Positions 2,946-26,033 of a stretch of DNA of 34,140 nt are shown one piece after another. The notes beneath the pieces are model-generated. The model was not told the DNA's origin. It worked only from the letters and a program-made list of their open reading frames with translations, and did no database searches. Both the position numbers and the translations under genes were made by a program. Each line of letters opens with the position of its first letter. Position 1 is the stretch's first letter. The stretch covers positions 1 to 34,140 of IMG/VR virus record IMGVR_UViG_3300017774_008308. One strand, 5' to 3'. This stretch comes from a virus (lineage: Duplodnaviria; Caudoviricetes).

Positions 2946-3686
2946 ATGATTAATAAACTAGATCTTTCCTCAGTAATTTCAAAATATTATCTTAATGGGC
3001 TTGTTGAACCTGTTAAATGGGATATTAAAGATAAAGTTATAACTATTAAATTTAATGCACCAACAAAAGATATGATTGGTAAAGTTGAATTTATAGGTAT
3101 GCCTCTTGAAGATTCAACAATTGCTATTAGTAATACAACTCAATTAAATAAATTAATTGCAATTACAAATGGTTATTTAGAATTAAAATATGAAAAAATA
3201 AACAAATTTATTACAAAACTTATTATAGCTGATAATCAATTTACTTTAAATTATGCTTTAGCAGATACAATGATTATACCTAAAGCAGGTGAATTAGGAG
3301 ATATTGGAGATTGGAATATTGAAGCTCCTTTAGATAATGAAAGTATTAATGCTATTGTTAGAGCTAAATCAGCACTTGCTGAAAGTGAAACAGTAGTTAT
3401 TAAACCCTTTGAAAATGCAGATAATGAATTTCAAATTGAAATGCAATTTGGGGGTAATATAGAACATGCTAATAAAGTATCTTTTTATATCCCTCAAGCA
3501 ACATATTCTAACCTCCCAGATGATTTTAAAGAACATTACAATTCAAATATGATTAGAGAAATTATGTATTGTAATAAAGATATGGCTAATGGAACTATTA
3601 GTATTAATTTAGAAGGTATTATGAAATTAGAATTTAAAAATGAAAATTTTAAAAGCACTTATTATCTTGTGTCAAAAGAAATCTAA
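2946..3686 (+). CDS. DNA polymerase sliding clamp (gp45/PCNA-like)
   Basis: 246 aa, acidic, two-domain size typical of trimeric clamps; directly after polB and upstream of clamp loader genes. Confidence 0.75.
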   Translation: MINKLDLSSVISKYYLNGLVEPVKWDIKDKVITIKFNAPTKDMIGKVEFIGMPLEDSTIAISNTTQLNKLIAITNGYLELKYEKINKFITKLIIADNQFTLNYALADTMIIPKAGELGDIGDWNIEAPLDNESINAIVRAKSALAESETVVIKPFENADNEFQIEMQFGGNIEHANKVSFYIPQATYSNLPDDFKEHYNSNMIREIMYCNKDMANGTISINLEGIMKLEFKNENFKSTYYLVSKEI

Positions 3687-3703
3687 TAATATATTTATAT
3701 AAG

Positions 3704-3779
3704 ACAAAACCATGACTTTAGGGAGCAAGTTTTGTAAATGTTTAACCCGCTGATCCTAGGACAGCACAATTTTAATGTG
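3704..3779 (+). promoter_or_regulatory. Structured 5' leader of hsp20
   Basis: Stem ACAAAAC(3704-3710)/GTTTTGT(3729-3735) with an 18-nt loop; second stem GCTG-A-TC-CTAG-GA-CAGC (3749-3765); weak CACA/TGTG next to the ATG. Confidence 0.6.
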
Positions 3780-4231
3780 ATATGAGTACACTATTTAGAG
3801 AAAATTATTTCTCACCATTTGATTTATTAGTTAAAGACTTTTTTAAGTCGGAATTAGATTTCCAACCCGCCAATCAAGCCAAATATTCCCACCCTGTAGA
3901 TATCTACGAAAACCCCGAAGGCCTTTATTTTGAAATAGCCTGTACGGGTCTTACTAAAAAAGATATTGAAATTCAAATCGAAGGGGATATTTTAAATATT
4001 CGTTATAATAAAGATAACGATAAAAAATGTTGTGAAGTAAATAATTGCAATTATATTCATAAAGGAATTGCTAGACGTTCTTTTAGTTTAGGATATAAAG
4101 TTGCAAATAAATTTAACCTTACTCTAGCTTTAGCAGAAATGGAAAATGGTCTTCTTAAGATTTCCATCCCCTTTTCTGAAGAATTAAAACCAAAAATCCT
4201 TACAATTAAGTAATTAAAAAGCTCCCTAAAG
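3716..4231. repeat. 11-bp perfect inverted repeat bracketing hsp20
   Basis: CTTTAGGGAGC at 3716-3726 and its reverse complement GCTCCCTAAAG at 4221-4231. Confidence 0.9.
3782..4213 (+). CDS. hsp20: Small heat shock protein, Hsp20/alpha-crystallin family
   Basis: PVDIYE, GLTKKDIEI, YIHKGIARRSF, AEMENGLLKISIP motifs; 143 aa. Confidence 0.95.
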   Translation: MSTLFRENYFSPFDLLVKDFFKSELDFQPANQAKYSHPVDIYENPEGLYFEIACTGLTKKDIEIQIEGDILNIRYNKDNDKKCCEVNNCNYIHKGIARRSFSLGYKVANKFNLTLALAEMENGLLKISIPFSEELKPKILTIK

Positions 4232-4263
4232 CTTGGATTAATTAAGAATATTTCGTATATTCA
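4232..4263 (+). promoter_or_regulatory. Bacteroidota-type promoter (P2) ahead of the groES/groEL block
   Basis: CTTG-N20(ending TTCG)-TATATTCA. Confidence 0.7.
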
Positions 4264-4283
4264 CGTTATAAAATAAAAAAACT

Positions 4284-4583
4284 ATGAGTTATACAATTAT
4301 TAAAGATCCGGTTCTTGAACCATTTTTCCTTTCCAAAGACGAATACTGTTATACAGTATACGAAATTGTAACCCCTGATCCTAAAAATTTAGAAAAGGGT
4401 AGTAAAGGGAAAGATTATCAAAAAGCTCTCGGACATTACACAAAACTTTCCCATGCTTTGAATTGCATTGCCAAAGTAAAACTTGATCATAAGAAAGAAT
4501 ACGACAGTATTAAATCTTACATTCAGGAATGGGAAATTAACAAACAAGCAATGGAAACTTTATTAGAATCATTAGGAATATGA
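4284..4583 (+). CDS. Hypothetical phage protein
   Basis: 99 aa ORF, A-rich upstream region, ATGA overlap with groES. Confidence 0.8.
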   Translation: MSYTIIKDPVLEPFFLSKDEYCYTVYEIVTPDPKNLEKGSKGKDYQKALGHYTKLSHALNCIAKVKLDHKKEYDSIKSYIQEWEINKQAMETLLESLGI

Positions 4584-4876
4584 AATTAGAAGCAATTTAC
4601 AATGCCGTTATCGTAAAACCAATCGAAACGGAAGAAACCACTTATGGTGGAATAATCGTCCCGGATTTAGGGAGTGAAAAAAATAAACTAGCTGAAGTAA
4701 TAACAGTTGGTGAAGGTTACTTTTCGGTAACTGGGGTCTGGATAGAAACAGTTCTTAAAGTTGGAGATATAGTAATACTCCCTACAATGGGATTTAGTAA
4801 GGTAGAATTTGAAGGAGAAGAATACTGGATAGGCCCAGAAAATCAAGTTCTAGGTAAAATAAATAATAACAATTAA
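4580..4876 (+). CDS. groES: Co-chaperonin GroES (Cpn10)
   Basis: Mobile loop ETTYGGIIVPD, VITVGEG, LKVGDIV; 98 aa, directly before groEL. Confidence 0.95.
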   Translation: MKLEAIYNAVIVKPIETEETTYGGIIVPDLGSEKNKLAEVITVGEGYFSVTGVWIETVLKVGDIVILPTMGFSKVEFEGEEYWIGPENQVLGKINNNN

Positions 4877-4882
4877 AAATAA

Positions 4883-6499
<1,617 letters not shown>

Positions 6500-10153: not shown

Positions 10154-11596
10154 ATGAATAATAGTTTTGCATACCTTCCTCCGGAGAAGAGGAAAAAAAT
10201 CCTTTTAATTTGCGATGATATCCGAGTTCATTCGGGAGTAGCAACAGTAGCACGAGAAATAGTAATACATACGTGCCAACATTTCAATTGGGTAAATATT
10301 GGTGGTTCTATTAATCACCCCGAAGTAGGAAAACGTTTAGATCTATCTCAATCAACCAATGAGACCAAGGGTATAACTGATTCCTCAGTTGTAATTTACC
10401 CGGCAAATGAATATGGTGGACCTGATATGCTACGTCAACTTATCCAAATTGAAAAACCGGACGCTATAATGTTAGTTACAGACCCTCGTTATTTTGTTTG
10501 GTTATTTTCAATGGAAAATGAAATTAGAAAAAATATTCCTATTACATATTTAAACATTTGGGATGATTATCCTGCACCTTATTATAATAAAGCATTTTAT
10601 GAATCATGTGATTTATTAATGGGGATTAGTAAACAAACTGTTAATATTAATAAACTTGTTTTAGGAGATAAAGCAAAAGATAAAATAATTAGATATGTTC
10701 CTCATGGTTTAAGTGAAAAAATATATTTCCCTATCCCCCAAAATCATGAACAATATCCTCAATTTACAGAGTTTAAAAATAACTTATTTCAAGGAAAAGA
10801 ATTTGACTTTGTATTATTTTTTAATTCAAGAAACATTAGAAGAAAACAAATTCCAGATACAATGTTAGCTTATAAATATTTTATTGATAAACTTCCAATA
10901 GAAAAAGCTAAAAAATGTGCTCTTGTACTTCATACTGAATTAGTATCAGATCATGGAACAGACCTTAAAGCTATTGAAGAATTATTTTTAAGTGAAGATC
11001 AATACAATGTTATTTTTACTAATAAAACAATGAATTCAACAGAAATGAATTTTTTATATAATTCATCTGATGCTCAAATTTTATTAACATCTAATGAAGG
11101 ATGGGGATTATCATTAACTGAAGCAATATTAGTTGGAAATCCAATTATTGCTAATGTAACAGGGGGAATGCAAGATCAAATGAAATTTGAAGATGAAGAA
11201 GGTAATTGGTTTACTCCATCCCCCGAAATTCCTTCTAATAATACTGGAAAATATAAAAAATGTGGAGAATGGGCCTTCCCAGTTTTCCCAAATAATCGAT
11301 CTATTCAAGGTTCTCCTCAAACCCCTTATATATGGGATGATAGATGTCGTCCCGAAGATGCTGCTGAACAAATATTAGCTGTTTATTCTTTAGATAAAAA
11401 AGAAAGAAAAGCTAAAGGTTTAAAAGGTAGAGAATGGGCCTTAAATGAAGCGGGACTTACATCACCTCTTCAAGGTCAAAGAGTTATTGAAGCCTTTGAT
11501 ACATTATTTAAAACTTGGAAACCAAGAGAAAAATATGAATTGATCAATGTTAATGAAGTAAAAGATAAAGTTATAAACCATAATTTGTTATATTAA
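10154..11596 (+). CDS. Glycosyltransferase, GT-B fold (GT4-like)
   Basis: HSGVA N-terminal loop, VPHG, RNIRRK, EGWGLSLTEA (E-x7-E), TGGMQD. Confidence 0.9.
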   Translation: MNNSFAYLPPEKRKKILLICDDIRVHSGVATVAREIVIHTCQHFNWVNIGGSINHPEVGKRLDLSQSTNETKGITDSSVVIYPANEYGGPDMLRQLIQIEKPDAIMLVTDPRYFVWLFSMENEIRKNIPITYLNIWDDYPAPYYNKAFYESCDLLMGISKQTVNINKLVLGDKAKDKIIRYVPHGLSEKIYFPIPQNHEQYPQFTEFKNNLFQGKEFDFVLFFNSRNIRRKQIPDTMLAYKYFIDKLPIEKAKKCALVLHTELVSDHGTDLKAIEELFLSEDQYNVIFTNKTMNSTEMNFLYNSSDAQILLTSNEGWGLSLTEAILVGNPIIANVTGGMQDQMKFEDEEGNWFTPSPEIPSNNTGKYKKCGEWAFPVFPNNRSIQGSPQTPYIWDDRCRPEDAAEQILAVYSLDKKERKAKGLKGREWALNEAGLTSPLQGQRVIEAFDTLFKTWKPREKYELINVNEVKDKVINHNLLY

Positions 11597-11597
11597 T

Positions 11598-12899
11598 ATG
11601 AAACCACTATTTATTATAAGTTCCCCTTTTGACACCTACAGTGGCTACGGTGCTCGTTCAAGAGATTTGATTAAAGCCATTATTAAAACAGATAAATATA
11701 CTGTAAGATTATTATCCCAGCGATGGGGTTCTACCCCATTTGGGTTTTGCCAAGACAACCTAGAGTGGACATCTTTATTAGATTTAGTTCTCCCAAATAA
11801 TCAAATACCTAAACAGCCTGAAATTTGGGCTCAAGTAACTATCCCTAGTGAGTTCCAACCTGTTGGAAAATATAATATTGGGTTTACAGCAGGTATAGAA
11901 ACAACTATAGCCCCAGCAGACTGGATTGAAGGATGTAACAGAATGAATCTTAATATTGTATCCTCAGAACATTCTAAAAACGTTTTTCATCAATCTCAGT
12001 TTGAAAAAAGAAATAAACAAACTAATGCTTTAGAAGGGACTATTAAACTAGAAAAACCAATTGAAGTATTATTTGAAGGTGTTAATACAGATGTATATAA
12101 AATATTAGAAAAAAATATTAATAAGAATATTGATTTAAGTTATATCAAGGAAGATTTCGCTTATTTATTTTTAGGACATTGGATTAATGGAGACTTAGGA
12201 GAAGATAGAAAAAATGTAGGTTTATTAATTAAAGCATTTTATGAAACTTTTAAAAATAAATCTAAAAAACCAGCATTAATTCTTAAAACTTCTCAAGTAG
12301 GTTCATCTTATGTAGATAGAGAAGAAATTTTAAAGAAAATTAAAGCGATTAAAAAAACAGTTAATTCTACAAACTTACCAAATGTTTATTTACTCCATGG
12401 GGATTTTACGGATGAAGAAATAAATGAATTATATAATAATTCTAAAGTAAAAGCTATGGTTAATTTAACTAAAGGTGAAGGATTTGGTAGACCATTACTT
12501 GAATTTACTTTAACTAAAAAACCATTAATTACTACAGCTTGGTCAGGTCATATAGATTTCCTTAACCCCGAATTTACTAGTTTAATTGGTGGTCAATTAA
12601 CTAATGTTCATCAAAGTGCGGCCAACCAATGGTTATTACCTGAATCTCAATGGTTTTCTGCTGATCATGGCCAGATAGGACATTTTTTAAAAGATGTATT
12701 TGAAAATTACAAAAATTATACAGATAAAGCTAAACGTCAATCTTTTAAAAGCAAAACAGAATTTAGTTGGGATAAAATGAAAGAAAAATTATGTAATATT
12801 TTAGATACATCCATTCCTGAATTCCCAAAAGAATTTGCATTAAAACTCCCAACTATTAAAAAAATCGAATTCCCTAAAAAAGAAATAATAAATGGATAA
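11598..12899 (+). CDS. Glycosyltransferase, GT-B fold (GT4-like)
   Basis: SGYG, DRKN, GEGFGRPLLE (E-x7-E), WSGHIDF. Confidence 0.9.
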   Translation: MKPLFIISSPFDTYSGYGARSRDLIKAIIKTDKYTVRLLSQRWGSTPFGFCQDNLEWTSLLDLVLPNNQIPKQPEIWAQVTIPSEFQPVGKYNIGFTAGIETTIAPADWIEGCNRMNLNIVSSEHSKNVFHQSQFEKRNKQTNALEGTIKLEKPIEVLFEGVNTDVYKILEKNINKNIDLSYIKEDFAYLFLGHWINGDLGEDRKNVGLLIKAFYETFKNKSKKPALILKTSQVGSSYVDREEILKKIKAIKKTVNSTNLPNVYLLHGDFTDEEINELYNNSKVKAMVNLTKGEGFGRPLLEFTLTKKPLITTAWSGHIDFLNPEFTSLIGGQLTNVHQSAANQWLLPESQWFSADHGQIGHFLKDVFENYKNYTDKAKRQSFKSKTEFSWDKMKEKLCNILDTSIPEFPKEFALKLPTIKKIEFPKKEIING

Positions 12900-13347
12900 T
12901 TTAATTAATTGCGCCCATTGTGATTCAGATGCGTGTTATGTAGAAGAAGTGAATCAAGATATAAAAACCTATTTTTGTTATGGGTGTGGTTTTCAAACTA
13001 ATTCATTAATGAAAAAAGGAGAACCATTTTTTGAAGAACAATCAAAAATTCTTCCTGAACTTTATAAAGATTTATTTTATGCTGATAAAGAGGGAAAAAT
13101 ATGGATGGCATCCTCAGTAAATTTACCCCAACAAGGAATGATATTTGCAAATGGACCTTCTAAAGAAGATTGGGGATGGGCTTCTGTAAAAGCTGTTCCT
13201 GTTTTAGAAGAAGAAAAAACAAAATACCCAATCCTAGGAAAACCAGATGAATATTATGAATGGAGAATGGATATGACTACATTAAAAATGTTTCCTAAGC
13301 GTGATTATATAGATGCTCTTTCGTATATTAACGTATTACCTGAATAA
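12892..13347 (+). CDS. Hypothetical protein with N-terminal zinc ribbon
   Basis: CAHC...CYGCG. Confidence 0.75.
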   Translation: MDNLINCAHCDSDACYVEEVNQDIKTYFCYGCGFQTNSLMKKGEPFFEEQSKILPELYKDLFYADKEGKIWMASSVNLPQQGMIFANGPSKEDWGWASVKAVPVLEEEKTKYPILGKPDEYYEWRMDMTTLKMFPKRDYIDALSYINVLPE

Positions 13348-13358
13348 ATTATATTATT

Positions 13359-13994
13359 ATGAAGATAAGTTATGGATTAACCGTGTGTAACGAACACGAA
13401 GAATTAAAAAATTTAATTGAATATTTATTTAAAAGAATTGATAGTGAAGATGAAATTATAGTAGTATACGATCAAAATAGAGTTACTCCTGAAGTATTAA
13501 AGGTTATAGAAGATTATAAAGAAGAAGCAACTTCTCATCCTTTTAATTTTCAACAAAATTTCCTAGAAAACAAAAACTTTATGAATAGCAAATGTACTGG
13601 AGATTATATATTCCAGATTGATGCCGATGAAATTCCTGAAAGTTTTTTGGTAGAAAATCTAAAATCAATTTTAGAAGATAATCCTATAGACTTATTAATT
13701 ACACCTCGTAAAAATTTAGTTGAAGGATTAACTCAGGAACATATCCAAAAATGGGGATGGAATGTAAATGAACAAGGTTGGGTTAATTGGCCTGATGCTC
13801 AAAAACGAGTTTATAAAAATACCTCAGAAATTAAATGGTCAGGTCACCAGGTGCATGGGATGGTTGAAGGTTATAAAACATTTGCAACCTTACCTTTTAC
13901 TGAAGAATGGAGTATTATCCATAACAAGACAATTGATCGTCAAGAAAATCAAAATGAACGTTATACTAAAATTGAAATAGGAGAATTAAAATGA
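13359..13994 (+). CDS. Glycosyltransferase family 2 (GT-A)
   Basis: TVCNE, EIIVVYD, GDYIFQIDADE (DxD), WPD, VHG. Confidence 0.9.
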   Translation: MKISYGLTVCNEHEELKNLIEYLFKRIDSEDEIIVVYDQNRVTPEVLKVIEDYKEEATSHPFNFQQNFLENKNFMNSKCTGDYIFQIDADEIPESFLVENLKSILEDNPIDLLITPRKNLVEGLTQEHIQKWGWNVNEQGWVNWPDAQKRVYKNTSEIKWSGHQVHGMVEGYKTFATLPFTEEWSIIHNKTIDRQENQNERYTKIEIGELK

Positions 13995-14392
13995 GAAAGT
14001 ACCTACCAACCCTTAGCGAATTAGTAGACAGATTGTCTATTGCCCAGCTTAAAGAAGTGTTTATTGTAGAACACAAAAATGAATACTCACAAGAAATTGC
14101 TGATATCGTTCATGATATCCAAGTATTACTTGATGAACAAAATGGTAAAATAACAGCAGATACAATTCGAGCAATTGTTGTTTTATCCCAAATGAATCTT
14201 CATATTTGGCATAATGAATCTAATTACCGTAAAGGTATTAAAGATGGTAATAATTTAGAATTAACACACGGTTTAAATGGTATCCGTAATGTAGCAAAAA
14301 ACCGTATTCAAGAAGTAGTAGGTGGCCGTAAAGATTATAAAATCGATTGTTTGGCTGCAGATTTTAAAGATTGGGAAATATCATGGGAATAG
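13991..14392 (+). CDS. Helical hypothetical protein of glycan loci
   Basis: SELVDRLSI...NLHIWHNE...NGIRNVAKNRI pattern, resembling DUF6165/DUF4254-type proteins from memory. Confidence 0.6.
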   Translation: MRKYLPTLSELVDRLSIAQLKEVFIVEHKNEYSQEIADIVHDIQVLLDEQNGKITADTIRAIVVLSQMNLHIWHNESNYRKGIKDGNNLELTHGLNGIRNVAKNRIQEVVGGRKDYKIDCLAADFKDWEISWE

Positions 14393-15105
14393 TAGAACGT
14401 ACTCGAAAAGAATCTAAACCTTTTTTATCAATAATTTTACCTAGTAGAAAAAGAGTAGAGATGTTAAATGAAACTCTTTATTCAATATATTCACTAGCTG
14501 ATTTAAACAATCCAAATTTTGAGGTTATAATTAAGGTTGATTTTGATGATCATGAAACATTAGATTATATAAAAAATTGGTCCAATGAATATGAAAATTT
14601 ACATTTTATTATAAATTCACGTAAAAAAGGATTTTTAAATTTAGTAGATTTCTTAGAAGACATGATAGACTTAGCTAAAGGAAAATATATTTTAGCAGCT
14701 AATGATGATATGATGTTTAAAACCCAAAATTGGAATACAATTTTAACTAAATGTCTGACTGATTTTAAAATTTATTTTCCTTACGTAAATGGTTATAGAG
14801 AATCTTTTTGGTGTATTCCTAAAGAATTATATACTGCTTTAGGGCATGTTGCTCCTCACAATCAAACTGATACTTATTTAAATTGGTTAGGCCAAGTATT
14901 AGGAATTGTAGAATACATAGATGATATTGAATTATATCATAAATTTGATTATGAAGATGAAACAGCATCCGATAAAGTTGATGTAATCGATATTAACTAT
15001 GCTAGTAGAGATTATCATAGAAATTCACCTGAATTTAAAGAAGATATAAAAATACTTCAAAAACTTTTAGGTATAGAAAACCTAAACCCAATAACAAAAA
15101 ATTAA
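14383..15105 (+). CDS. Glycosyltransferase family 2 (GT-A); start revised to ATG 14383
   Basis: SIILPSRKR, EVIIKVDFDD, AKGKYILAANDDM. Confidence 0.85.
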   Translation: MGIVERTRKESKPFLSIILPSRKRVEMLNETLYSIYSLADLNNPNFEVIIKVDFDDHETLDYIKNWSNEYENLHFIINSRKKGFLNLVDFLEDMIDLAKGKYILAANDDMMFKTQNWNTILTKCLTDFKIYFPYVNGYRESFWCIPKELYTALGHVAPHNQTDTYLNWLGQVLGIVEYIDDIELYHKFDYEDETASDKVDVIDINYASRDYHRNSPEFKEDIKILQKLLGIENLNPITKN

Positions 15106-15581
15106 TGATATTTCCTGAGATAAAAATATTCAAACCTGATGCTTTTGAAGATTATAGAGGTGAACTTTATACTCTATTTAAACAAGAAGAGCATAATCTA
15201 ATTTTTAATCATGATAAAGTTTCAATTTCAAGGCAAAACGTTTTGAGAGGAATGCATGGTGATTCTAAATCCTGGAAATACATTTCTTGCCTTTCAGGTG
15301 AAATATATTTAGTAGTTATAGATAATAGACCTAATTCTCCAAATTATTTAAAATGGGATGGGATAATGATTACATCAAAAAATAGAACATCAGTTCTAAT
15401 CCCTCCTAATTTTGCTAACGGACATTATATCCTAAGTCCAGAAGCAACACTTTTTTATAAATGGTCATACCCCGGTGATTATCCTGATGTTCAAGATCAA
15501 TTTACATTAAAATGGAATGACCCTAAAATAGGAATTGATTGGCCTACTTCAAATCCTATTTTATCTAAACGTGATTCCTAG
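15105..15581 (+). CDS. rmlC: RmlC-family NDP-4-keto-6-deoxy-sugar 3(,5)-epimerase, GDP-heptose epimerase-like
   Basis: DYRG, NVLRGMHGD, IPPNFANGH, YPGDYPDVQDQFT, WNDPKIGIDWP, PILSKRD. Confidence 0.9.
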   Translation: MIFPEIKIFKPDAFEDYRGELYTLFKQEEHNLIFNHDKVSISRQNVLRGMHGDSKSWKYISCLSGEIYLVVIDNRPNSPNYLKWDGIMITSKNRTSVLIPPNFANGHYILSPEATLFYKWSYPGDYPDVQDQFTLKWNDPKIGIDWPTSNPILSKRDS

Positions 15582-15620
15582 AGAAAAAATTATTATATTA
15601 ACATCAAAAATAGAATAAAA

Positions 15621-16181
15621 ATGAAAAAAGCACTTATTATTACTTGGGAACGATTCCAAGATCATGAATTGGTTTACCCTTATTACTCATTAAAAGAAAA
15701 TGGATTTGAAGTAACTTTGATGGCCAATAAAATTGGTAGAATTTATGGTGATATGGGATGCCATATGCCTTGTGATGTTCTTACCTCAGATATGGAAAAC
15801 GAAGAAATTCGTAAACAATATCTAAATGAATATAATGTTATTTTAATTCCCGGAGGTGTTAAATCTCTAGAAAAATTAAGACAAGAACAAGGTGTTCTTA
15901 AATTTATCCAAGAATGGAATGCTGCAGGTAAAACTATCTTCTCAATTTGTAATGGAGCTCAGTTATTAATTTCAGCTAAAATTCTTCAAGGTAGAACTAT
16001 CTCAGGTTATTATTCAATTGATGTTGATGTTGAAAATGCTGGAGCAACTTATAGTAGAGGCCCAGTTGTTGTAGATGATAATATTATCTCAACTCCACAT
16101 TATGATTTTATGGGAGAATGGATGAGAACATGCATAGAAGTATATGATCAAAGAAGTTACAACCTAGAAACTATTATCTAA
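15621..16181 (+). CDS. DJ-1/PfpI family protein
   Basis: FQDHELVYP, ILIPGG, nucleophile elbow ICNGAQLL, VVVDDNIIS. Confidence 0.92.
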   Translation: MKKALIITWERFQDHELVYPYYSLKENGFEVTLMANKIGRIYGDMGCHMPCDVLTSDMENEEIRKQYLNEYNVILIPGGVKSLEKLRQEQGVLKFIQEWNAAGKTIFSICNGAQLLISAKILQGRTISGYYSIDVDVENAGATYSRGPVVVDDNIISTPHYDFMGEWMRTCIEVYDQRSYNLETII

Positions 16182-16861
16182 TGAAGAAAGATAATTATGA
16201 TGTTAATGTAGTTAAAAAACCATGGGGTTATGAATACCTAGCTTATGAAAATGAACACGTAGCTCTGTGGTTTCTTCACATTAAGCATACTCATGCTACA
16301 TCTTTACATTGCCATCCTAAAAAAACTACAGGATTAGTATTACTAGATGGTAAAGCTGAAGTATCATTTTTTAATAATACTAATGTTTTATTACCCGGAG
16401 ATAAAGTAATGATTAGAAAAGGTTTGTTTCATAGTACAAAAGCAACTACTGAAAAAGGAGCATTTGTGTTTGAAATTGAAACCCCCGTTGATAAACAAGA
16501 TTTAGTTAGATTTAGAGACAGTTATGGAAGAGAAGGTAAACCATATGAGGATAGCACCCACGAAATTCCTAAAACAGAAGATTGTCTTCTTATTTCTAAC
16601 CCAGAATTAAATCAAACAAATGAGTATGTTTTTTCAAATTGTACTCTAACTGTTAAAAGTATTACAGATATTTCTGAGTTTTTAAATATTGATGATTCAC
16701 TTAATGTTATGTTTTTAAAAGGTGGACTACAGGCTGATTACGGTCAAAATGTAGCTGGTTCTGGAGATGTTGTAATAGCAAGTACTATTAAACAACTTAC
16801 AGAAGTATTTAATAAAGTTGATTCTGAAACAATTATAATGATTATAAAAAATAATGGCTAA
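16181..16861 (+). CDS. Cupin-domain protein (mannose-6-phosphate isomerase C-terminal-like)
   Basis: KPWGYE, SLHCHPKK, GLFHS, EIETP, DLVRFRDSYGR. Confidence 0.8.
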   Translation: MKKDNYDVNVVKKPWGYEYLAYENEHVALWFLHIKHTHATSLHCHPKKTTGLVLLDGKAEVSFFNNTNVLLPGDKVMIRKGLFHSTKATTEKGAFVFEIETPVDKQDLVRFRDSYGREGKPYEDSTHEIPKTEDCLLISNPELNQTNEYVFSNCTLTVKSITDISEFLNIDDSLNVMFLKGGLQADYGQNVAGSGDVVIASTIKQLTEVFNKVDSETIIMIIKNNG

Positions 16862-17240
16862 TTTTTACCCCCCCGGATTTGAATCCGAAAAAAAGAATTT
16901 AGCTATCGATTTCGATGGTGTAATTCACAATGCTGATAAAGGTTGGCATGATGGAACTTGTTATGGAGACCCACTCCCAGGTTCATTAGAAGCATTACTT
17001 AACTTATCTGAAAAATATAATATTGTTATATTTACCGCTAAAGCAAAACCTGATAGACCTCTTGTAGATGGTAAAACAGGAGTTACTCACGTTTTAGAAT
17101 GGTTAAAAAAATATAATGTAGCTCACTATGTAGATTCGGTAACATCCGAAAAACCACGAGCAGATTTATACATAGACGATAATGGTTATCGTTTTGAAAA
17201 TTGGGAAGACACATTAAATTTTATAAAAAGTTATGAATAA
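16854..17240 (+). CDS. Minimal (capless) HAD-superfamily phosphatase
   Basis: AIDFDGVI (motif I), IFTAK (II), KP (III), YIDD (IV); 128 aa. Confidence 0.88.
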   Translation: MANFYPPGFESEKKNLAIDFDGVIHNADKGWHDGTCYGDPLPGSLEALLNLSEKYNIVIFTAKAKPDRPLVDGKTGVTHVLEWLKKYNVAHYVDSVTSEKPRADLYIDDNGYRFENWEDTLNFIKSYE

Positions 17241-18066
17241 TTTTAGATTAAAAGCCTTTAATAAGGCCTCTTTTTGCAGACATTTTGAAAATCAGGTTTA
17301 TAAAGCATCTCAAGATAAACATATTAAATTTCCATTTTACCTTTCAGCGGGTCAAGAATATATCCCCGCATCAATTTATACTTTATTAGAAGAAAAAGGT
17401 ATTGATCCTAATGTTTTTATTCAACATAGAGGCCATTCTCATTATCTTTGTAAAGGAGCGGATCCAATTCAACTAATTGATGAGTTATTAGGACGAAAAA
17501 CGGGATGTGCTAAAGGAATGGGAGGTTCAGCTTCAATCCATTCAATTAAAAAAAATATTTTTGGTCATGATGGTTTAATGGGTAGTCAAGTTCCTATCGC
17601 TGTTGGCCATGCTTATGAAACTCGTAAACCCACAGTTGTAGTAATGGGAGATGCCTCCGCGGAAGAAGATTATGTGTTAGGAGCATTAGGTTGGGCTTCA
17701 ACTAAAAATTTACCTATTTTATTTATTGTTGAAGATAATAATTTATCTATTTTAACAGAAAAAAGAGTAAGACGTAATTGGGAAATGGAGGATATTGCTA
17801 AAGCATTCAAATTGAAAGCTTTTAATATAGATGATAATCCATTAACTATTCAAAAGTATTTAGAAGATTATGATTTTTCATACCCTATGCTTTTAAATAT
17901 TAATACTCATAGAAAATATTGGCACTCAGGAGCTGGACAGGATGGGAATGAATTTGATCGTTATAAAAACGAATTAAAATCATTAGGGGATGAAGGTAAA
18001 AAAATTGATGAAGAAAATAAGTTATTTATAGAAAAATTATGGCAACAACAGTTAGAGATACAATAA
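17233..18066 (+). CDS. TPP-dependent dehydrogenase E1 alpha-like subunit
   Basis: LSAGQE, HRGH, GMGGSASIH, TPP motif GDA-x24-EDNN. Confidence 0.92.
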   Translation: MNNFRLKAFNKASFCRHFENQVYKASQDKHIKFPFYLSAGQEYIPASIYTLLEEKGIDPNVFIQHRGHSHYLCKGADPIQLIDELLGRKTGCAKGMGGSASIHSIKKNIFGHDGLMGSQVPIAVGHAYETRKPTVVVMGDASAEEDYVLGALGWASTKNLPILFIVEDNNLSILTEKRVRRNWEMEDIAKAFKLKAFNIDDNPLTIQKYLEDYDFSYPMLLNINTHRKYWHSGAGQDGNEFDRYKNELKSLGDEGKKIDEENKLFIEKLWQQQLEIQ

Positions 18067-18950
18067 AAGAAATCACTCGTAAACACCTTTCAGAAGGTAA
18101 AGGTAAATGTTACGGACAATGTTTAACAGCCGTAGGTTGGGTTGGTGGAACTCTACCTGAAATGTATGAAGAAGATGGTATGGTTGAATTTTCAATGGCA
18201 GATGTTTCTAATGGATCAATAGCTACAGGTATTGCTTTAGCAGGAGGTAGACCTATTTATGTAGTTCGTTATCAAGGATTTCAATGGTATAATTTAGTTT
18301 CAATAGTTAATTATGCTGCTAAATCTAAAGAATTATGGAACCGCCCTTGTCCTATATTTGTAAGAAGTATAGCAATGGAAGGTGGAGTAGGACCCGTAGC
18401 GGGTTCATCTCACCACTCATTAGCTCACAGAATGCCAGGTATTAAAGTTATTTCTCCTATGACCCCCGGTGAATATGAATATGCTTATGAGTGTTTTATG
18501 AATGAGGATGAACCTTATTATGTTTCTGAACATAGAAAATCATATGATAATGCTGAAGAATTAGAAAATATTATTTTACCAACAGCAGATTTCACCATTT
18601 TCCCTATTTCTATTACTAGATTGGAAATGAAAAAATTAGTTGATTTAGCTAAACAAGAAAATATTATTTTAAACATAATTCATCAATTATGGATCAAACC
18701 ATTTATTGTTGAAGATAGTTGGAAAATTGCTTTAGATAATTCTAAATTTGGTGGACTAGTAACAGATGATGATTATGTAGAAGGTACAGCAAGTAGTATA
18801 GCTAATGAATTAAGTTTGGCTACTGGAAAAAAAGTATGGACATTAGGCCTAGAACCTCGTACAGCTGGATTCCACCCAACAGTAGATAATTTACCCCCTA
18901 GTGCTGAACAGATTATAAAAAAATTAAAACAAATTAAATATGGGATATAG
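18039..18950 (+). CDS. TPP-dependent dehydrogenase E1 beta-like (transketolase pyrimidine-binding/C-terminal) subunit
   Basis: GIALAGGRPI, IVNYAAK, CPIFVR, MPGIKVISPMTP, LPPSAEQI; overlaps the alpha subunit. Confidence 0.9.
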   Translation: MATTVRDTIKEITRKHLSEGKGKCYGQCLTAVGWVGGTLPEMYEEDGMVEFSMADVSNGSIATGIALAGGRPIYVVRYQGFQWYNLVSIVNYAAKSKELWNRPCPIFVRSIAMEGGVGPVAGSSHHSLAHRMPGIKVISPMTPGEYEYAYECFMNEDEPYYVSEHRKSYDNAEELENIILPTADFTIFPISITRLEMKKLVDLAKQENIILNIIHQLWIKPFIVEDSWKIALDNSKFGGLVTDDDYVEGTASSIANELSLATGKKVWTLGLEPRTAGFHPTVDNLPPSAEQIIKKLKQIKYGI

Positions 18951-20103
18951 TTGGCCTCTTATTAATGATAATATCACTCAAAGTGATAGAGAAATTTTAG
19001 CAGACTTTTGTTTAAATGGTGAACGTTTTACAAATGGTCCTAAAGTAAAAGAATTTGAAAAAATTTGGTCTGAATGGTTAGGAGTTAAACACTCAGTAAT
19101 GGTTAACTCAGGAGCATCTGCTAATTTTATTTCTATAGCAATGGTTAAAGAATTAGTTGGTATTGGTGAAGTTATTGTCCCTCCAATTGGTTGGGTTTCA
19201 GATATATCATCCGTAGCTCAGTTAGGTATGACTCCTGTATTTGTAGATGTTTCAATAAATGATTTTAATATCACTTTTGAAAACATAAAAAATGCAGTTA
19301 CCCCAAATACAAAAGCTATTGTATTAGTTCATACTTTAGGGTTTAATGGTATAAGTGATGAGCTTATTCAATTTGCTAAGGAACGTAATATAATTTTAAT
19401 TGAAGATTGTTGTGAAGCTCATGGAGCTACTTATAAAGATAAAAAAGTAGGTTCATTTGGTGATATTTCATTATTTTCATTTTATTTTGGACATCATATT
19501 ACTACTATTGAAGGTGGTACTGTTTGTGTAAATAATGATAAATTATATGATTTAGCTAAGTTATTCCGTTCACACGGTATGACTAGAGAGGCATCACAAG
19601 AATTACAACGTGATTATCAATTAATGTACCCTGATTTAAATCCATTGTTTACATTCGCGGTAGCTGGGTTTAATATGCGAAGCAGCGAATTAAACGCCGT
19701 CCTTGGTATTGAACAGATGAAACGCATTGATAACAATATAAAACGTAGAACAGAAAATTTACATATTTGGTTAAATAATCTTGATTCTAATAAATTCATT
19801 ACAGGTTTTAAAACATCTGGGAGTAGTAATTTTGCTTTACCTCTAGTAATGCAAGGAAGTACTCGTAATAAACTTAAAGATGTTTGTAATGTTTTAGAAA
19901 ATGAAGGAGTTGAATATCGTTTAGGTACTGCGGGTGGTGGTAATCAAGCACGTCAACCTTATCTTAAAAAATTCACTCACAGAATAAGTGGAGTATTAGC
20001 TCAAGCTGATTATATTCACGATAATGCTCTTTATGTTGGTAATCATATTGATTTAACTAAAGAACAAATTATTAATCTTTGTAAAAAATTAAATAATGTT
20101 TAA
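18940..20103 (+). CDS. DegT/DnrJ-fold PLP enzyme, ColD-type GDP-4-keto-6-deoxy-sugar 3-dehydratase
   Basis: VNSGASAN, IEDCCEAHGA, SFYFGHHITTIEGG (His in place of the Schiff-base Lys), RSHGMTR, GFNMR; no Fe-S Cys cluster. Confidence 0.85.
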   Translation: MGYSWPLINDNITQSDREILADFCLNGERFTNGPKVKEFEKIWSEWLGVKHSVMVNSGASANFISIAMVKELVGIGEVIVPPIGWVSDISSVAQLGMTPVFVDVSINDFNITFENIKNAVTPNTKAIVLVHTLGFNGISDELIQFAKERNIILIEDCCEAHGATYKDKKVGSFGDISLFSFYFGHHITTIEGGTVCVNNDKLYDLAKLFRSHGMTREASQELQRDYQLMYPDLNPLFTFAVAGFNMRSSELNAVLGIEQMKRIDNNIKRRTENLHIWLNNLDSNKFITGFKTSGSSNFALPLVMQGSTRNKLKDVCNVLENEGVEYRLGTAGGGNQARQPYLKKFTHRISGVLAQADYIHDNALYVGNHIDLTKEQIINLCKKLNNV

Positions 20104-21058
20104 AAATCAAAAAGTTTTAGTAACAGGCGGAGCCGGAATGATTGGTCGTCAATTAGTAGATTTACTTCTAGAAAAAGGAGCCAAAGTAACAATAGCTGAC
20201 TTAAATGAACCTACTGATTTACCTCAGGAAGTGGATTTTATTAAAGCAAATCTACTATATTTTGACCAGTGTCAAAACATTTGTCAAGGTCAAGATTATG
20301 TTTTTAATTTAGTAGGTATTAAATGCTCCCCTAAAGTAACAATGGAACAACCAGCTGATATTATGGGTCCGATGATGCAATTTAATACTAATATGTTAGA
20401 GGCAGCTATGAAAGCTAATGTTAAATGGTATTTGTATACAAGCACTGTTGGTGTCTATACTCCTGCTGAAATATTTTATGAGGATGATGTTTGGAAAGGT
20501 TCTCCCTCACCAAATGATTGGTATGGTGGTTGGGCTAAGCGAATGGGGGAATTACAATGTGAAGCTTATGAAAAACAAAATGGTGAAGGTAGATGTTCAA
20601 TTGTAAGACCAGCTAATGTTTATGGACCTTATGATAATTTTGATTTGAAAAATGCTATGGTTGTTCCTTCGCTCATCAGAAAAGCAAACGAAAATGATAT
20701 AATTGATGTTTGGGGTGATGGTTCACCGATTAGAGATTTCATTCATGCTAAAGATGTTGCTCGTGGAATGATGTTTGTAGTTGAAAACAAAATTACTAAA
20801 CCTGTTAATTTAGGTTCGGGCACAGGAGTAACAATTAAAGAATTATCCGAAATTGTTGCTAATTATTTTAATAAATCTATTCAATACTCTCCAGAAAAAC
20901 CATCTGGAGATGCTAAACGTATTTTTAGTATGGAAAGAGCTAATTCGTATGGTTTTTATCCTGAAGTTTCTATTAAAGAAGGTATAGAAAGTACAATTGA
21001 GTGGTTTTTAAATAATCCTGATAAAATAGATAAGAAATTTAATGCCCTCAACAAATAA
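20096..21058 (+). CDS. NAD(P)-dependent epimerase/reductase (GDP-L-fucose synthase-like)
   Basis: TGGAGMIG, YGGWAKR, RPANVYGPYDNF, VWGDGSPIRDF. Confidence 0.9.
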   Translation: MFKNQKVLVTGGAGMIGRQLVDLLLEKGAKVTIADLNEPTDLPQEVDFIKANLLYFDQCQNICQGQDYVFNLVGIKCSPKVTMEQPADIMGPMMQFNTNMLEAAMKANVKWYLYTSTVGVYTPAEIFYEDDVWKGSPSPNDWYGGWAKRMGELQCEAYEKQNGEGRCSIVRPANVYGPYDNFDLKNAMVVPSLIRKANENDIIDVWGDGSPIRDFIHAKDVARGMMFVVENKITKPVNLGSGTGVTIKELSEIVANYFNKSIQYSPEKPSGDAKRIFSMERANSYGFYPEVSIKEGIESTIEWFLNNPDKIDKKFNALNK

Positions 21059-21633
21059 TGGATAAAATTTTAATCACAGGAGCAAACTCAGGTCTAGGTA
21101 AACATTTAGTATCTAAGTTTAAAGATAATGGATATGAAGTGTTTGAACATAAAGGTAGTAAACATTACGATTTATCTAATCAAGATGAAGTAAAAAAATT
21201 AGCAGATGATGCTAAAGATTTTGGAGTAAATATTCTGATAAATAATGCTGCTATAGTTTGTCCAAGTAAAGAATTGTTATTATATTCCGATAAAGAAATT
21301 AAAAATATGATAGAAGTAAATTTAACTTCTCCTATATTATTAACATTTTATTTACTAAATCAATTAACAGATATTATTAATATTAATTCAATGGTTGGAC
21401 TTGAAGTTAAATCCCCAAGAACATTATACTCAGCTACAAAGTGGGGGTTAAGGGGATTTGCTCAAAGTCTAAAAGAAGAAAATAAAAATATAAATGTCTT
21501 AGATGTTTATCCTACAAATATTAAAACAACCCCTGATAGACAAAATGCTATGGATGTTAATTTTGTAGTAGATAATATATATAATTCATTTTTAAATAAA
21601 GAACAAACACTTATATTAGATGGAAGAAAATAA
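21058..21633 (+). CDS. Classical short-chain dehydrogenase/reductase
   Basis: TGANSGLG, LINNAA, NINS, YSATK. Confidence 0.92.
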   Translation: MDKILITGANSGLGKHLVSKFKDNGYEVFEHKGSKHYDLSNQDEVKKLADDAKDFGVNILINNAAIVCPSKELLLYSDKEIKNMIEVNLTSPILLTFYLLNQLTDIININSMVGLEVKSPRTLYSATKWGLRGFAQSLKEENKNINVLDVYPTNIKTTPDRQNAMDVNFVVDNIYNSFLNKEQTLILDGRK

Positions 21634-22576
21634 AACAATATTAATTTGTGGAGCTACAGGTTTTATTGGTAGAAATTTATTAGATTTTTATTACAAACAA
21701 GGAAAATATAAAATCAAAGCAACTCATTTTAAACGTCCTGCTGTTGAAGGGTATGATGGTGTGAAATGGATAAATTGTGATTTACGTGATTCAAAACAAG
21801 TAAAAGAAGCTGTAAATGGAGTAGATATAATTTTACAATTTGCTGCTACAACTACAGGAGCTAAAGATATAGTTTCTAAACCTTACATTCATGTTACAGA
21901 CAATGCTGTTATGAATTCTTTACTACTTAGAGAAGCATTTGAACGAGGGATAGAACATTTTATTTTTCCTAGTTGTACTATCATGTATCAAAAATCAGAA
22001 ATAGCTATTAAAGAATCTGATTTTAATCCCTCAGAAGAAATTCAATCATTTTATTTTGGAGCAGGATATACTAAAATATATTTAGAAAGAATGTGTGAGT
22101 TTTATTCTCGTTTAGGTAAAACAAAACATACAGTTATTAGACATTCTAATATGTATGGTCCTTATGACAAATATGATTTAGAAAAATCTCATGTATTTGG
22201 AGCTACTATTACTAAAGTAATGACATCACAAGACGGAAAAGTAAATGTATGGGGTACTGGAGAAGAAAAACGTGATTTGTTATATGTTGAAGATTTAGTA
22301 GATTTTATAGATATTACTATTAACAAACAAACCACCCCATATGAATTACTTAATGTTGGTTTAGGTGAAGGAATTAAAATTAAAAATTTAGTTCAAAAAA
22401 TTATCACCCACTCAGAACGTGATTTAGAAATAGTTCATGATTTGTCAAAACCAACTGTTCCAACTTCTCTATTTTTAGATTGTTCTTTAGCAAAAGATAA
22501 ATTAAATTGGAAACCAAAACATACCTTAGATGAAGGTATTATTAAAACTTTAAATTGGTATAAAAACAATAAATAA
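21620..22576 (+). CDS. NAD(P)-dependent epimerase/reductase (second Fcl-like enzyme)
   Basis: GATGFIG, RHSNMYGPYD, SHV, VWGTGEEKRDLLYVED. Confidence 0.9.
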   Translation: MEENKTILICGATGFIGRNLLDFYYKQGKYKIKATHFKRPAVEGYDGVKWINCDLRDSKQVKEAVNGVDIILQFAATTTGAKDIVSKPYIHVTDNAVMNSLLLREAFERGIEHFIFPSCTIMYQKSEIAIKESDFNPSEEIQSFYFGAGYTKIYLERMCEFYSRLGKTKHTVIRHSNMYGPYDKYDLEKSHVFGATITKVMTSQDGKVNVWGTGEEKRDLLYVEDLVDFIDITINKQTTPYELLNVGLGEGIKIKNLVQKIITHSERDLEIVHDLSKPTVPTSLFLDCSLAKDKLNWKPKHTLDEGIIKTLNWYKNNK

Positions 22577-22577
22577 T

Positions 22578-23639
22578 ATGGGGATGTCAGATTGCATATC
22601 AGATTACAACCACAGTAATCTAAATAAAGTAAATAGAGTATTAATCACAGGTATAACAGGAATGGTTGGCTCACACTTAGCTGATTTCTTATTAGAAAAT
22701 ACAGATTGGAAAATTTATGGTTTAGCTCGTTGGGCTGATTCTTTAGATAATTTAGAACATTTAACAGAAAAAATTAATAATAAAGAACGGATTGAACTTA
22801 TTTATGGTGACTTGAATGATTTAGCTTCATTGATGACAGCTATTGATAAATCCCAACCAGATTATTTATTTCATTTAGCTGCTCAATCTTACCCACAAAC
22901 TAGTTTTGACTCACCTATAGAAACGATACAAACAAATATATTAGGGACGGCTAACTTGTTAGAGGCATTGCGTAAATCACGTTATAAAAACGCTATAACT
23001 CATGTATGTGCATCGAGTGAGGTATTTGGTCGTGTACCTAAAGAAAAACTTCCAATTAATGAAGAATGTTCCTTCCACCCAGCTTCACCTTATGCTATTT
23101 CAAAAGTAGGTACTGATTTAGTAGGTCGTTATTATGCTGAAGCCTATGGGATGACAATCATGACTACGCGTATGTTTACTCATACGGGTCCTAGACGTGG
23201 TGATGTGTTTTCGGAATCAACCTTTGCAAAACAAATTGCAATGATTGAAGCCGGTTTACAAGAACCTAAAATTTATGTAGGTAATTTAGATTCACTTCGC
23301 ACTTATGCTGATGTAAGAGATGCTGTTAAAGCTTATCATATGTTAGTTACAGTAAATCCAACCTCCGGAGAATATTATAATATTGGAGGTACATATACTT
23401 GTAAAATTGCGGATATGCTTAATTATTTAATTAACCAATCAACAGTTCAAAACATTGAAATCGTAACCGATCCTGAACGTTTAAGACCAATTGATGCGGA
23501 TTTACAAGTCCCAGATACTACTAAATTCCAAAACCACACAGGTTGGAAACCAGAATACACATTTGAACAGACAATGAATGATCTTCTTGAATATTGGAGA
23601 AACAGAGTCAATTCAGGACGTAAATTTTTAAGACGATGA
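22578..23639 (+). CDS. gmd: GDP-mannose / GDP-manno-heptose 4,6-dehydratase (DmhA-like)
   Basis: TGITGMVGSH, HLAAQS, SSEVFG, SPYAISK, HTGPRR, VGNLDSLR, RLRPID. Confidence 0.93.
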   Translation: MGMSDCISDYNHSNLNKVNRVLITGITGMVGSHLADFLLENTDWKIYGLARWADSLDNLEHLTEKINNKERIELIYGDLNDLASLMTAIDKSQPDYLFHLAAQSYPQTSFDSPIETIQTNILGTANLLEALRKSRYKNAITHVCASSEVFGRVPKEKLPINEECSFHPASPYAISKVGTDLVGRYYAEAYGMTIMTTRMFTHTGPRRGDVFSESTFAKQIAMIEAGLQEPKIYVGNLDSLRTYADVRDAVKAYHMLVTVNPTSGEYYNIGGTYTCKIADMLNYLINQSTVQNIEIVTDPERLRPIDADLQVPDTTKFQNHTGWKPEYTFEQTMNDLLEYWRNRVNSGRKFLRR

Positions 23640-24367
23640 AAATATTAGTTATAGGAGATAGTTGTTTAGACATCTTCAGATATGGTAAAATAACTCGTAT
23701 TGCTCCTGAAGCACCCGTTCCCATTATTGTCCCAGAAAGAGAAACATCAAACCCAGGAATGGCAGGAAACGTAGTATCTAATTTAAAATCATTAGGAGCT
23801 GAAGTAGAATTTATTACTAATAAAACAGAAATACGTAAAATTAGATACGTTTGTTCTAAATATAATCATTTATTATTACGCGTAGATGAAAATGATACTT
23901 GTGAAAAAATAGATATAATACCCTTTAAAACTGGAGTATTTAATGCTGTAATAATTTCTGATTATTGTAAAGGATTTTTAACTGAAAAAGATATAGAAAT
24001 AATTTCTAAAAGTTGTGATTGTCCAATATTCTTAGATACTAAGAAAATATTAGGAGAATGGGCTCACAATATTGATTTTATTAAAATTAATTATCATGAA
24101 TATGAGCGTAATAAAGAAGTTTTAAAAAATGATTTAATTCTACAAAATAAAACTATTGTAACTAGAGGTAAATACGGTTGTGATTATCAAGGTAAAAATT
24201 ACCCTACAATAGATGTACCTGTAAAAGATGTTTCCGGAGCAGGCGATACCTTTCTATCAGGACTAGTAGTAGAATATATTCGCTCTAAAAGCATAGATTT
24301 ATCAATTAACTTTGCTCAGAAATGCACAACAGTAGTAATTCAAAAATCAGGAGTATCAACAATATAA
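23636..24367 (+). CDS. rfaE: Heptose-7-phosphate kinase, stand-alone RfaE/HldE domain I (PfkB family)
   Basis: VIGDSCLD, RIAPEAPVP, GMAGNV, SDYCKG, DVSGAGDTF. Confidence 0.9.
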   Translation: MKILVIGDSCLDIFRYGKITRIAPEAPVPIIVPERETSNPGMAGNVVSNLKSLGAEVEFITNKTEIRKIRYVCSKYNHLLLRVDENDTCEKIDIIPFKTGVFNAVIISDYCKGFLTEKDIEIISKSCDCPIFLDTKKILGEWAHNIDFIKINYHEYERNKEVLKNDLILQNKTIVTRGKYGCDYQGKNYPTIDVPVKDVSGAGDTFLSGLVVEYIRSKSIDLSINFAQKCTTVVIQKSGVSTI

Positions 24368-24379
24368 TAAAATAAAAAC

Positions 24380-25177
24380 ATGGATAAATCATTTGAAATA
24401 GTAGAAACACAATTTGGTAATTTTTTAATTAATGAATATGATTTAATTGGAAATTTTATAAAACACCAAAAACAATGGGAATATCATCTATATGAATTTT
24501 ATTCTCAAATATTAGATGAAAATAGTTATTGTGTTGATGCTGGAGCTAATCTAGGATTTCACACGATTCAATTTGGTCGTTTATCTAAAAAAGTATATGC
24601 CTTTGAACCTCAATCATTAATATTTAATCAACTATGTGCTAATATTTTATTTAATGGATTAGATGAAGTAATAAATCCTTATAAATTAGCATTAGGAGAT
24701 AAAGTTGACAAACAACAATTGTGGAACATTGAACATGAAGATTGGGTTGGAAATGGATCTCATAATTGGGGTGGTAGAGGTATCATCCAAAAAGATTTAG
24801 ATCCTAAAAGAGCTAATGAAAATGAATATCGAGAATATGATGTAGTAGAAATAGTACCTTTAGATTCTATAAACATCCCTAAATGTGATCTTTTCAAAAT
24901 CGATATTCAAGGATATGAATATTTTGCTTTTTTAGGAGCTCAAGAATTAATAATAAATAATAAACCTATTATTTTATTAGAAAATCACCTAAATGATTTA
25001 GAAAACGAGAAAAAATCAAAACAATTTTTATTAGATTTAGGATATGATCTTTATAGATATAATGTTGGAAATAAAGAAGATTGTATTTTAATTCACCCTG
25101 AAAATCAAAATTATTCTAAATCACTTTCAGTAATTGAAAATATTAAAGATAAATATAACATTATTAAAGAATCATGA
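24380..25177 (+). CDS. FkbM-family SAM-dependent methyltransferase
   Basis: VDAGANLGFHT, VYAFEP, KIDIQGYE. Confidence 0.92.
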   Translation: MDKSFEIVETQFGNFLINEYDLIGNFIKHQKQWEYHLYEFYSQILDENSYCVDAGANLGFHTIQFGRLSKKVYAFEPQSLIFNQLCANILFNGLDEVINPYKLALGDKVDKQQLWNIEHEDWVGNGSHNWGGRGIIQKDLDPKRANENEYREYDVVEIVPLDSINIPKCDLFKIDIQGYEYFAFLGAQELIINNKPIILLENHLNDLENEKKSKQFLLDLGYDLYRYNVGNKEDCILIHPENQNYSKSLSVIENIKDKYNIIKES

Positions 25178-26019: not shown

Positions 26020-26033
26020 TTATAAATAACATA

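Follow-up and report, generated by a model that had tools for sequence, protein, structure and literature searches.

Why should the mRNA of a phage small heat-shock gene carry, on either side of its coding region, two segments able to pair with each other? We addressed this question in the window (the whole stretch of DNA analysed, 34,140 nt; a 34-kb phage contig with ~29% GC), for which a sequence-only reading had proposed that the hsp20 mRNA pairs its 5' leader with its 3' tail, in competition with a local leader stem. All the coordinates on which that proposal was built were confirmed: the local stem joins ACAAAAC (3704-3710) to GTTTTGT (3729-3735), the two arms lie at 3716-3726 and 4221-4231, and the latter is an exact 11-nt complement, GCTCCCTAAAG, located 7 nt 3' of the hsp20 stop. 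The features of the region are as follows.

3691..3699, + strand: phage late-promoter-like motif ATATTTATA, found in 134/139 family leaders
3704..3735, + strand: hairpin H1 (outer stem 3704-3710/3729-3735; apex UG[A3715]CUU-UAGG-GAG-CA), incompatible with the long-range helix
3710..3726, + strand: 5' arm of the long-range helix, perfect core CTTTAGGGAGC at 3716-3726
3749..3765, + strand: hairpin H2, GCUG[A3753]UC-CUAG-GA-CAGC, with an SD-like word inside in the SD-bearing clades
3782-4213, + strand: hsp20, small heat-shock protein (sHsp) of 143 aa, the looped-out gene (PF00011, E 1.9e-9; phrog_432)
4221..4236, + strand: 3' arm of the long-range helix, perfect core GCTCCCTAAAG at 4221-4231
4232..4263, + strand: host-type promoter of the next gene, CTTG 4232-4235, 20-nt spacer, TATATTCA 4256-4263; overlaps the 3' arm
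4284..6499, + strand: context genes, a 99-aa ORF, groES (4580-4876) and groEL (4886-6499)

On the + strand, hsp20 has as neighbours genes for a family B DNA polymerase, a 246-aa protein, the 99-aa ORF, groES, groEL and a clamp loader. The phage-encoded groES and groEL downstream of hsp20 (4580-6499) are also present in relatives that have no hsp20 at this site, and positions 10154-26882 hold a long run of glycosyltransferase and nucleotide-sugar genes together with a DJ-1/PfpI gene. Genes for portal, sheath, tube, head and terminase are present in a near-complete relative (G003). A search for cultured close relatives gave none, the five records matched all being at <60% identity. The host is probably a member of the Bacteroidota, since the promoter motif fits the Bacteroidota consensus, SD-like (Shine-Dalgarno-like) words are scarce and family loci are binned in Flavobacteriaceae assemblies. 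The statement that this phage uses no SD sequences was upheld for the window, with SD usage in 2/48 genes, and failed for the family, in which 21/139 hsp20 leaders contain an SD-like word that mostly lies within hairpin H2. None of four phage records encodes bS21.

In the window, the pairing extends beyond the core as had been suggested, through G3714-C4232, a bulged A3715, a U-U mismatch and CCA/UGG (3710-3712/4234-4236), and the extended helix appears in both the MFE and the centroid structure of the whole region. The 18-nt loop described as exposed is predicted to fold instead, into UG[A]CUU-UAGG-GAG-CA with a tetraloop. An exact complement of at least 11 nt arose in 36/3000 shuffles of the window's tail and the window duplex was matched by 5/100 shuffles; by itself, the 11-nt complement is only modestly unusual. 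Thus the view that chance was unlikely could not be sustained from the window alone and was borne out only when relatives were compared.

For this comparison we gathered 264 homologous loci from viral and genome contigs, of which 262 were recognised; removal of 105 duplicates and 14 short loci left 143, and the family set consists of these minus four distant bacterial genes (139 distinct loci). With a pass defined as a best leader-tail helix matched by at most 1/40 tail shuffles, 138/139 family loci passed (two of them with a hand-set tail offset), against 0/10 other phage hsp20 genes, 1/30 host genes (from the class of a Flavobacteriaceae assembly) and 0/2 E. coli sHsp genes (ibpA, ibpB). Two outgroup loci (L324, L329) had window scores below -20, yet failed the shuffle test and were rejected. 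A Watson-Crick-only, strand-neutral score was passed by 120/139 loci, most failures holding G-U pairs and passing the helix shuffle test. In the first 58 distinct loci, cognate duplexes had a mean of -34.9 kcal/mol versus -22.7 for mismatched pairs. Over the family, the arms comprised 77 distinct core pairs, uninterrupted over 7-20 bp and mostly over 11-12. On a FastTree protein tree, both sides had changed on the same branch at least 23, 20, 11, 6, 15 and 19 times at six core columns, counts that were anchored on the predicted helix and so lean in its favour; a MAFFT alignment misplaced the 3' arms, and no pair counts were taken from it. Under strand-neutral scoring, internal mismatches were G-U in 80 cases and A-C in 11 (distinct contexts 32 versus 8), which argues that it is RNA of the + strand that pairs.

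The helix is kept down to ~44% protein identity, and hsp20 ranked first for a leader-tail helix among the 179 genes of G003, the 177 of G002 and the 48 of the window. Its 3'-arm core stands 5-19 nt past the hsp20 stop in 134 of the 137 loci where it follows directly, and at 28, 34 and 34 nt in the other three. Part of the conservation of the 3' arm has another cause, since its CTTGG doubles as the upstream box of the next gene's promoter. Related phages supply compensatory changes in the arms (same-branch changes, with 138/139 loci passing), and the proposal of a gene-spanning 5'/3' RNA helix competing with a local leader stem is backed by conservation, co-change on the tree and the G-U strand bias. 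On these comparative grounds the helix is under selection, belongs to the RNA strand, is specific to hsp20 and is predicted to be incompatible with H1, and an RNA helix between the hsp20 leader and tail is almost certainly real.

A DUF2061 gene intervenes between hsp20 and the 3' arm in L268 (990-1220) and L277 (995-1201); there the arm is found past the stop of the added gene and has kept its pairing. In an independent collection of 80 metagenome loci, of which 55 were distinct and had enough flank, the arm came directly after hsp20 in 17 loci and 218-252 nt further on in 33, the contig ending too early in the remaining five; an intervening ORF was detected automatically in 30 of the 33 loci with a displaced arm, and the arm lay 1-9 nt past the inserted gene's stop. 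Since the 3' arm is placed behind the inserted gene, the helix brackets a unit and not the hsp20 stop codon. Most members of one clade (L268, L277, L362-L439) carry this DUF2061 membrane-protein gene within the loop closed by the helix, and interspersed sisters lack it.

When loci were anchored on the downstream gene, hsp20 was missing at the site in 7/32, with both promoter motifs kept. The gap in L296, L307 and L314 runs from ~3700-3710 to ~4229-4244, so that the breakpoints fall at or inside the arms. Empty alleles, with no hsp20 between the two promoter motifs (L296, L302-L304, L307, L314-L315; near 1130-1200), retain outer arm remnants; L302-L304 have another gene upstream of the empty site, and no hsp20 was found elsewhere in four empty-site genomes (6-59% complete). 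Inverted repeats around one gene that is lost in some relatives, with breakpoints at or inside the repeats, speak for the alternative that had been offered at the DNA level, an invertible cassette. We virtually discount it, however: G-U pairs are biased to the + strand, bulges are frequent, all 127 loci (of 143) with a recognisable neighbour have the same orientation and include no inverted copy of the cassette, and the empty sites fit deletion between repeats rather than inversion.

We then considered where the transcript begins and ends. In G003, ATATTTAT[AT] stood sense-upstream of an ORF in 29/49 matches versus antisense in 3/49, and this late-promoter-like motif precedes portal, tail fibre, sheath, tube and hub genes, coming as near as 3 nt to the ATG. 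Transcription probably starts within a few nt downstream of ATATTTATA. H1 begins ~4 nt past the motif and is probably at the very 5' end, since ATATTTATA acts late-promoter-like and can lie 3 nt from an ATG. The host-type promoter behind hsp20, which we take to be Bacteroidota sigma-A-like by comparison with the consensus of that phylum, is found in 110/139 family tails; TCGTATATT-type motifs occur six times on the + strand of the window and never on the - strand, and YTTGG stands at the same spacing in 10/11 G003 copies of this promoter. There is no terminator behind the 3' arm in most loci, nor, in the window, between hsp20 and the genes on either side.

Small parts of the region are included in 24 RNA runs, and contigs of seven distinct runs were compared. 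Near-identical contigs cover parts of the leader, gene and tail; one bridges 4103-4273, none spans both arms, and one assembled contig starts at 3699, a weak hint of the 5' end. In RNA run X1, a joint from 3700 to 4244 was considered as a reverse-transcriptase skip over the helix and rejected: since the same joint is found in genomic empty alleles of relatives (L296, L307), it gives no support to the helix. An 18-nt search for this joint returned one unrelated locus.

H1 carries the 5' arm, its apex consisting of a stem, a bulged A, 2-3 bp and a small loop, and H1 and H2 represent one bulged-A architecture. The bulged-A apex of H1 was found in 83/139 loci versus 19% in shuffles; it was missed in 56/139 by a strict test and in 51/139 by a relaxed one, and the bulge was another base in some loci (C 9, G 1, T 9 of 139). 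H2 was found in 133/139 loci, its stems and inner pairs varying on both sides and its bulged A being constant. The conserved AGG centre of the long helix is at the same time the end of the H1 tetraloop. Since the H1 bulged A is paired within the long helix in 45/88 loci, the bulged-A motif belongs to H1 and is not kept for the long helix.

Loose matches to H2-like hairpins occur at other genes (14/179, 7/177 and 3/48 leaders) and are mostly weak; two strong H2-type bulged-A hairpins lie ~60-66 nt before other genes in G003 (C1, upstream of 25528 and 45917), one of them with the same stem as H2 of the L163 clade. A distant clade (L273-L276, L279) has an extra conserved structured segment before H1, ~100-55 nt upstream of hsp20, without an Rfam match. 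By eye, only the L028 clade (L028, L031, L035, L037, L044-L047, L054 and L057) has a 3' arm that could pair with the SD-bearing H2 as well, and this arm ends ~5 nt before the ATG of the next gene.

In a nested model with the coding sequence held open, H1 had a predicted probability of 0.69-0.79 at temperatures up to 37 °C when the tail was left out and of 0.00 when it was included, and H1 alone was predicted to melt between 45 and 55 °C. The suggestion of a pseudoknot was not borne out, stem and helix being mutually exclusive in this model, a type that cannot represent pseudoknots. The 5' arm sits ~55-70 nt upstream of the AUG (3782) in the window, no pairing of the tail with an SD or with the start region was seen there, and closure leaves the predicted accessibility of the start codon nearly unchanged, so that any translational effect would need a protein. 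Thermometers are usual in sHsp leaders according to 10.1101/2020.04.20.050740, and together with the predicted melting of H1 and the position of H2 over an SD-like word in some clades this would suit the thermosensor that the sequence-only reading had suggested. The long-range helix itself is nonetheless a highly improbable RNA thermometer, since in the window its predicted closure stays at 0.98-1.00 across 4-65 °C, with the start region uncovered at constant accessibility; in 23 loci, warming from 15 to 50 °C shifted predicted closure by no more than 0.05.

IbpA represses its own translation via 5' UTR stem-loops, and weakening any of three compromises repression, as reported in 10.1101/2020.04.20.050740. 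Like ROSE/ibpA leaders, the phage leaders precede an sHsp gene and contain hairpins in tandem, each having a small loop and, 2-3 bp beneath it on the 5' side, a bulged purine, and in some clades the last hairpin holds the SD-like word; the ROSE feature of at least two leader hairpins with a bulged purine under a small loop is thus present (H1 83/139, H2 133/139), with A as the bulge. They differ from ROSE/ibpA (Rfam RF01832) in that the bulge is A and not G, the U(U/C)GCU motif (taken from PMC3669281) is absent from the H2 variants listed, and an SD is absent in most clades, the SD-like word being present in 21/139 only. They also differ in lacking an Rfam match: for window positions 3500-4400 and 11 relatives, Rfam gave none above threshold and none to ROSE (the E. 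coli ibpA control scored 100 bits). Unlike the phage family, ibpA, ibpB and the 10 other phage hsp20 genes are without the leader-tail helix.

Among the leaders of other phage hsp20 genes, 9/10 had a counterpart with a bulged G; E. coli ibpA had three, ibpB had one, and 1/30 host leaders contained it as well. The Rfam ROSE_2 consensus draws bulged-G hairpins. In cyanophages and in Agrobacterium, Pseudomonas and Salicola phages, such a hairpin, typically [G]CC-UUCG-GG, lies 40-60 nt upstream of hsp20; these loci (L282:555-580, L324, L326-L331, L283) match upstream hairpins of ibpA and ibpB (L318). The bulged-G hairpin is a candidate for a general sHsp recognition motif. On the protein side, self-repression by IbpA is reported to require Arg93, Lys at this position abolishing it, and an aromatic residue at Tyr34 in E. 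coli (PMC10474464). The Arg93 column holds R in 122/139 loci and in 112/129 distinct proteins, with Lys in 17; the Tyr34 column holds P, S, N or T in nearly all of the 129 family proteins, with one His and otherwise no aromatic residue, and an invariant His/Tyr adjoins it. Transfer of the IbpA mechanism is uncertain because of the Lys at Arg93 in 17 proteins and the absence of an aromatic residue 34. Several Hsp20 columns differ along with the bulged base between the family and 12 outgroup proteins, a comparison of two groups with no statistical power.

Tentatively, and with a chance that we put somewhat below even, we read the helix as a clamp that closes the mRNA in competition with an operator read by Hsp20. 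This reading is favoured because the bulged A is kept in both H1 and H2 although a bulge weakens a hairpin, and because the AGG centre of the helix is the end of the H1 tetraloop while the H1 bulged A is not kept for the long helix. Late transcription would start just upstream of H1, and H1 and H2 would fold at once into a two-site operator resembling the bulged-G hairpins of ibpA. A free Hsp20 oligomer on H1/H2 would dampen translation and delay closure; with Hsp20 busy with clients, the tail, made ~500 nt later, would invade H1 and remove half of the operator. The 5' end would then pair with the tail and both might be shielded from nucleases, as in B. subtilis hbs, the result being a timed switch, with the mRNA either repressible by Hsp20 or closed and protected. 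Start site, ligand, direction and outcome of this switch are what we infer, and we assume that closed means on and stable. A sharper form, doubtful but quite conceivable, is a chaperone-gated co-transcriptional commitment switch, in which Hsp20 reads the two bulged-A hairpins, the mRNA tail is a built-in anti-operator that invades H1 from 500-750 nt away, and each transcript is locked repressed or closed/active by the free Hsp20 present during its synthesis. If true, control of the ROSE/IbpA type would here have been rewired to suit hosts in which Shine-Dalgarno pairing is hardly used.

An RNase III stem and a passive clamp are the main rivals of the operator-clamp reading, and either could be true alongside it. 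Host RNase III might free hsp20 (and the inserted gene) from a longer transcript, or start decay as for icaR. RNase III processing stems occur around pre-rRNA and in the T7 early transcript. The predicted duplex totals a median of 23 bp and at least 20 in 123/139 loci, bulges included and inflated by A-U flanks, against an ideal substrate of 22 bp, many being <20, in PMC3867540, where the proximal and distal boxes of such substrates are described as degenerate; in the window hsp20 is not set off from the adjacent genes by a terminator, the helix can enclose units of two genes, and B. thetaiotaomicron, the positive control of our search, has RNase III. Nevertheless, the uninterrupted cores are short, H1 already explains the conserved centre, none of four phage records encodes the enzyme and, in hbs, deletion of RNase III is reported to be without effect (PMC5737220), all of which makes processing rather unlikely. 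A passive stability clamp with no protein ligand, in which H1 guards the nascent 5' end for as long as the tail is missing and the helix afterwards takes over the protection of both ends, would suit the start of H1 ~4 nt after the promoter-like motif, the proposal that hairpin I of Pseudomonas ibpA stabilises its mRNA (PMC3669281) and the shorter half-life of hbs single-arm mutants (PMC5737220). We consider it unlikely, since it leaves unexplained both the destabilising bulged A in the two hairpins and the restriction to hsp20 among 404 scored genes.

Two further explanations turn on what lies around the 3' arm. Its constant closeness to a stop codon, whether that of hsp20 or of the inserted gene, would be expected of a closed loop for ribosome recycling or covalent circularisation, but phage intergenic gaps are short anyway and the arm follows the last gene rather than hsp20; moreover, no back-joint was seen among the RNA contigs (which drop such forms) and Rfam gave no bulge-helix-bulge or ribozyme match, so that we hold such a loop very improbable. 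A split intrinsic terminator with the whole gene as its hairpin loop is barely credible: some tails are U-rich right behind the arm and a fresh promoter follows in 110/139, but at least 6 U in the next 8 nt are found in 20/139 only, several clades start the next gene within ~30 nt of the stop and have no intervening promoter, and a further, separate terminator-like hairpin is present in L060 and L061. Against these alternatives, it is the operator-clamp reading that we carry forward.

Phylogenetic support for the phage helix comes from a family of well over 100 loci, together with natural experiments in the form of gene insertions and deletions. Screens that cluster single intergenic regions, as in PMC10690425, are blind to such a helix; supplement file 5 of that paper gives 19 candidate RNAs upstream of viral HSP20 genes, among which H1/H2 may already be included. 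The bulged-purine hairpin common to ibpA, cyanophage and phage-family leaders is a concrete candidate for the target of an sHsp in its own mRNA, a question left open by the IbpA papers (10.1101/2020.04.20.050740, PMC10474464), and the phage family indicates how sHsp leader control might work without an SD. A literature search, with most subscription journals outside its scope, found no paper on a phage hsp20 leader-tail helix.

A 2025 preprint (PMC12697547) names two bacterial leader-tail mRNAs, hbs and icaR, and calls the subject understudied. The phage loci share with this type of 5'/3'-UTR interaction complementary segments across the coding sequence and mRNA-strand pairing with compensatory change. 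In B. subtilis hbs, as described in PMC5737220, a helix of similar size (14 bp) joins leader and tail over a short gene, away from the SD, and compensatory mutants prove its effect on half-life; the phage helix differs in being phage-borne and GC-rich, in its probable place close to the 5' end, in its incompatibility with a conserved leader hairpin and, usually, in the lack of a terminator behind it. Tail-leader pairing in S. aureus icaR gives an RNase III substrate and covers the SD (PMC3868564), whereas the phage 5' arm lies ~55-70 nt upstream of the AUG and most clades have no SD. As in the type I toxin mRNAs hok and aapA, described in 10.1101/615682, transient co-transcriptional hairpins would give way to 5'-3' long-distance pairing once the tail is made; unlike them, the phage locus is without a toxin, no antisense RNA was found and the long helix leaves the SD free. 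Leader-tail pairing is already known from hbs, icaR, hok and aapA, and the phage hsp20 helix, as judged from its conservation and co-change, is real, with a putative function in the control of its own mRNA.
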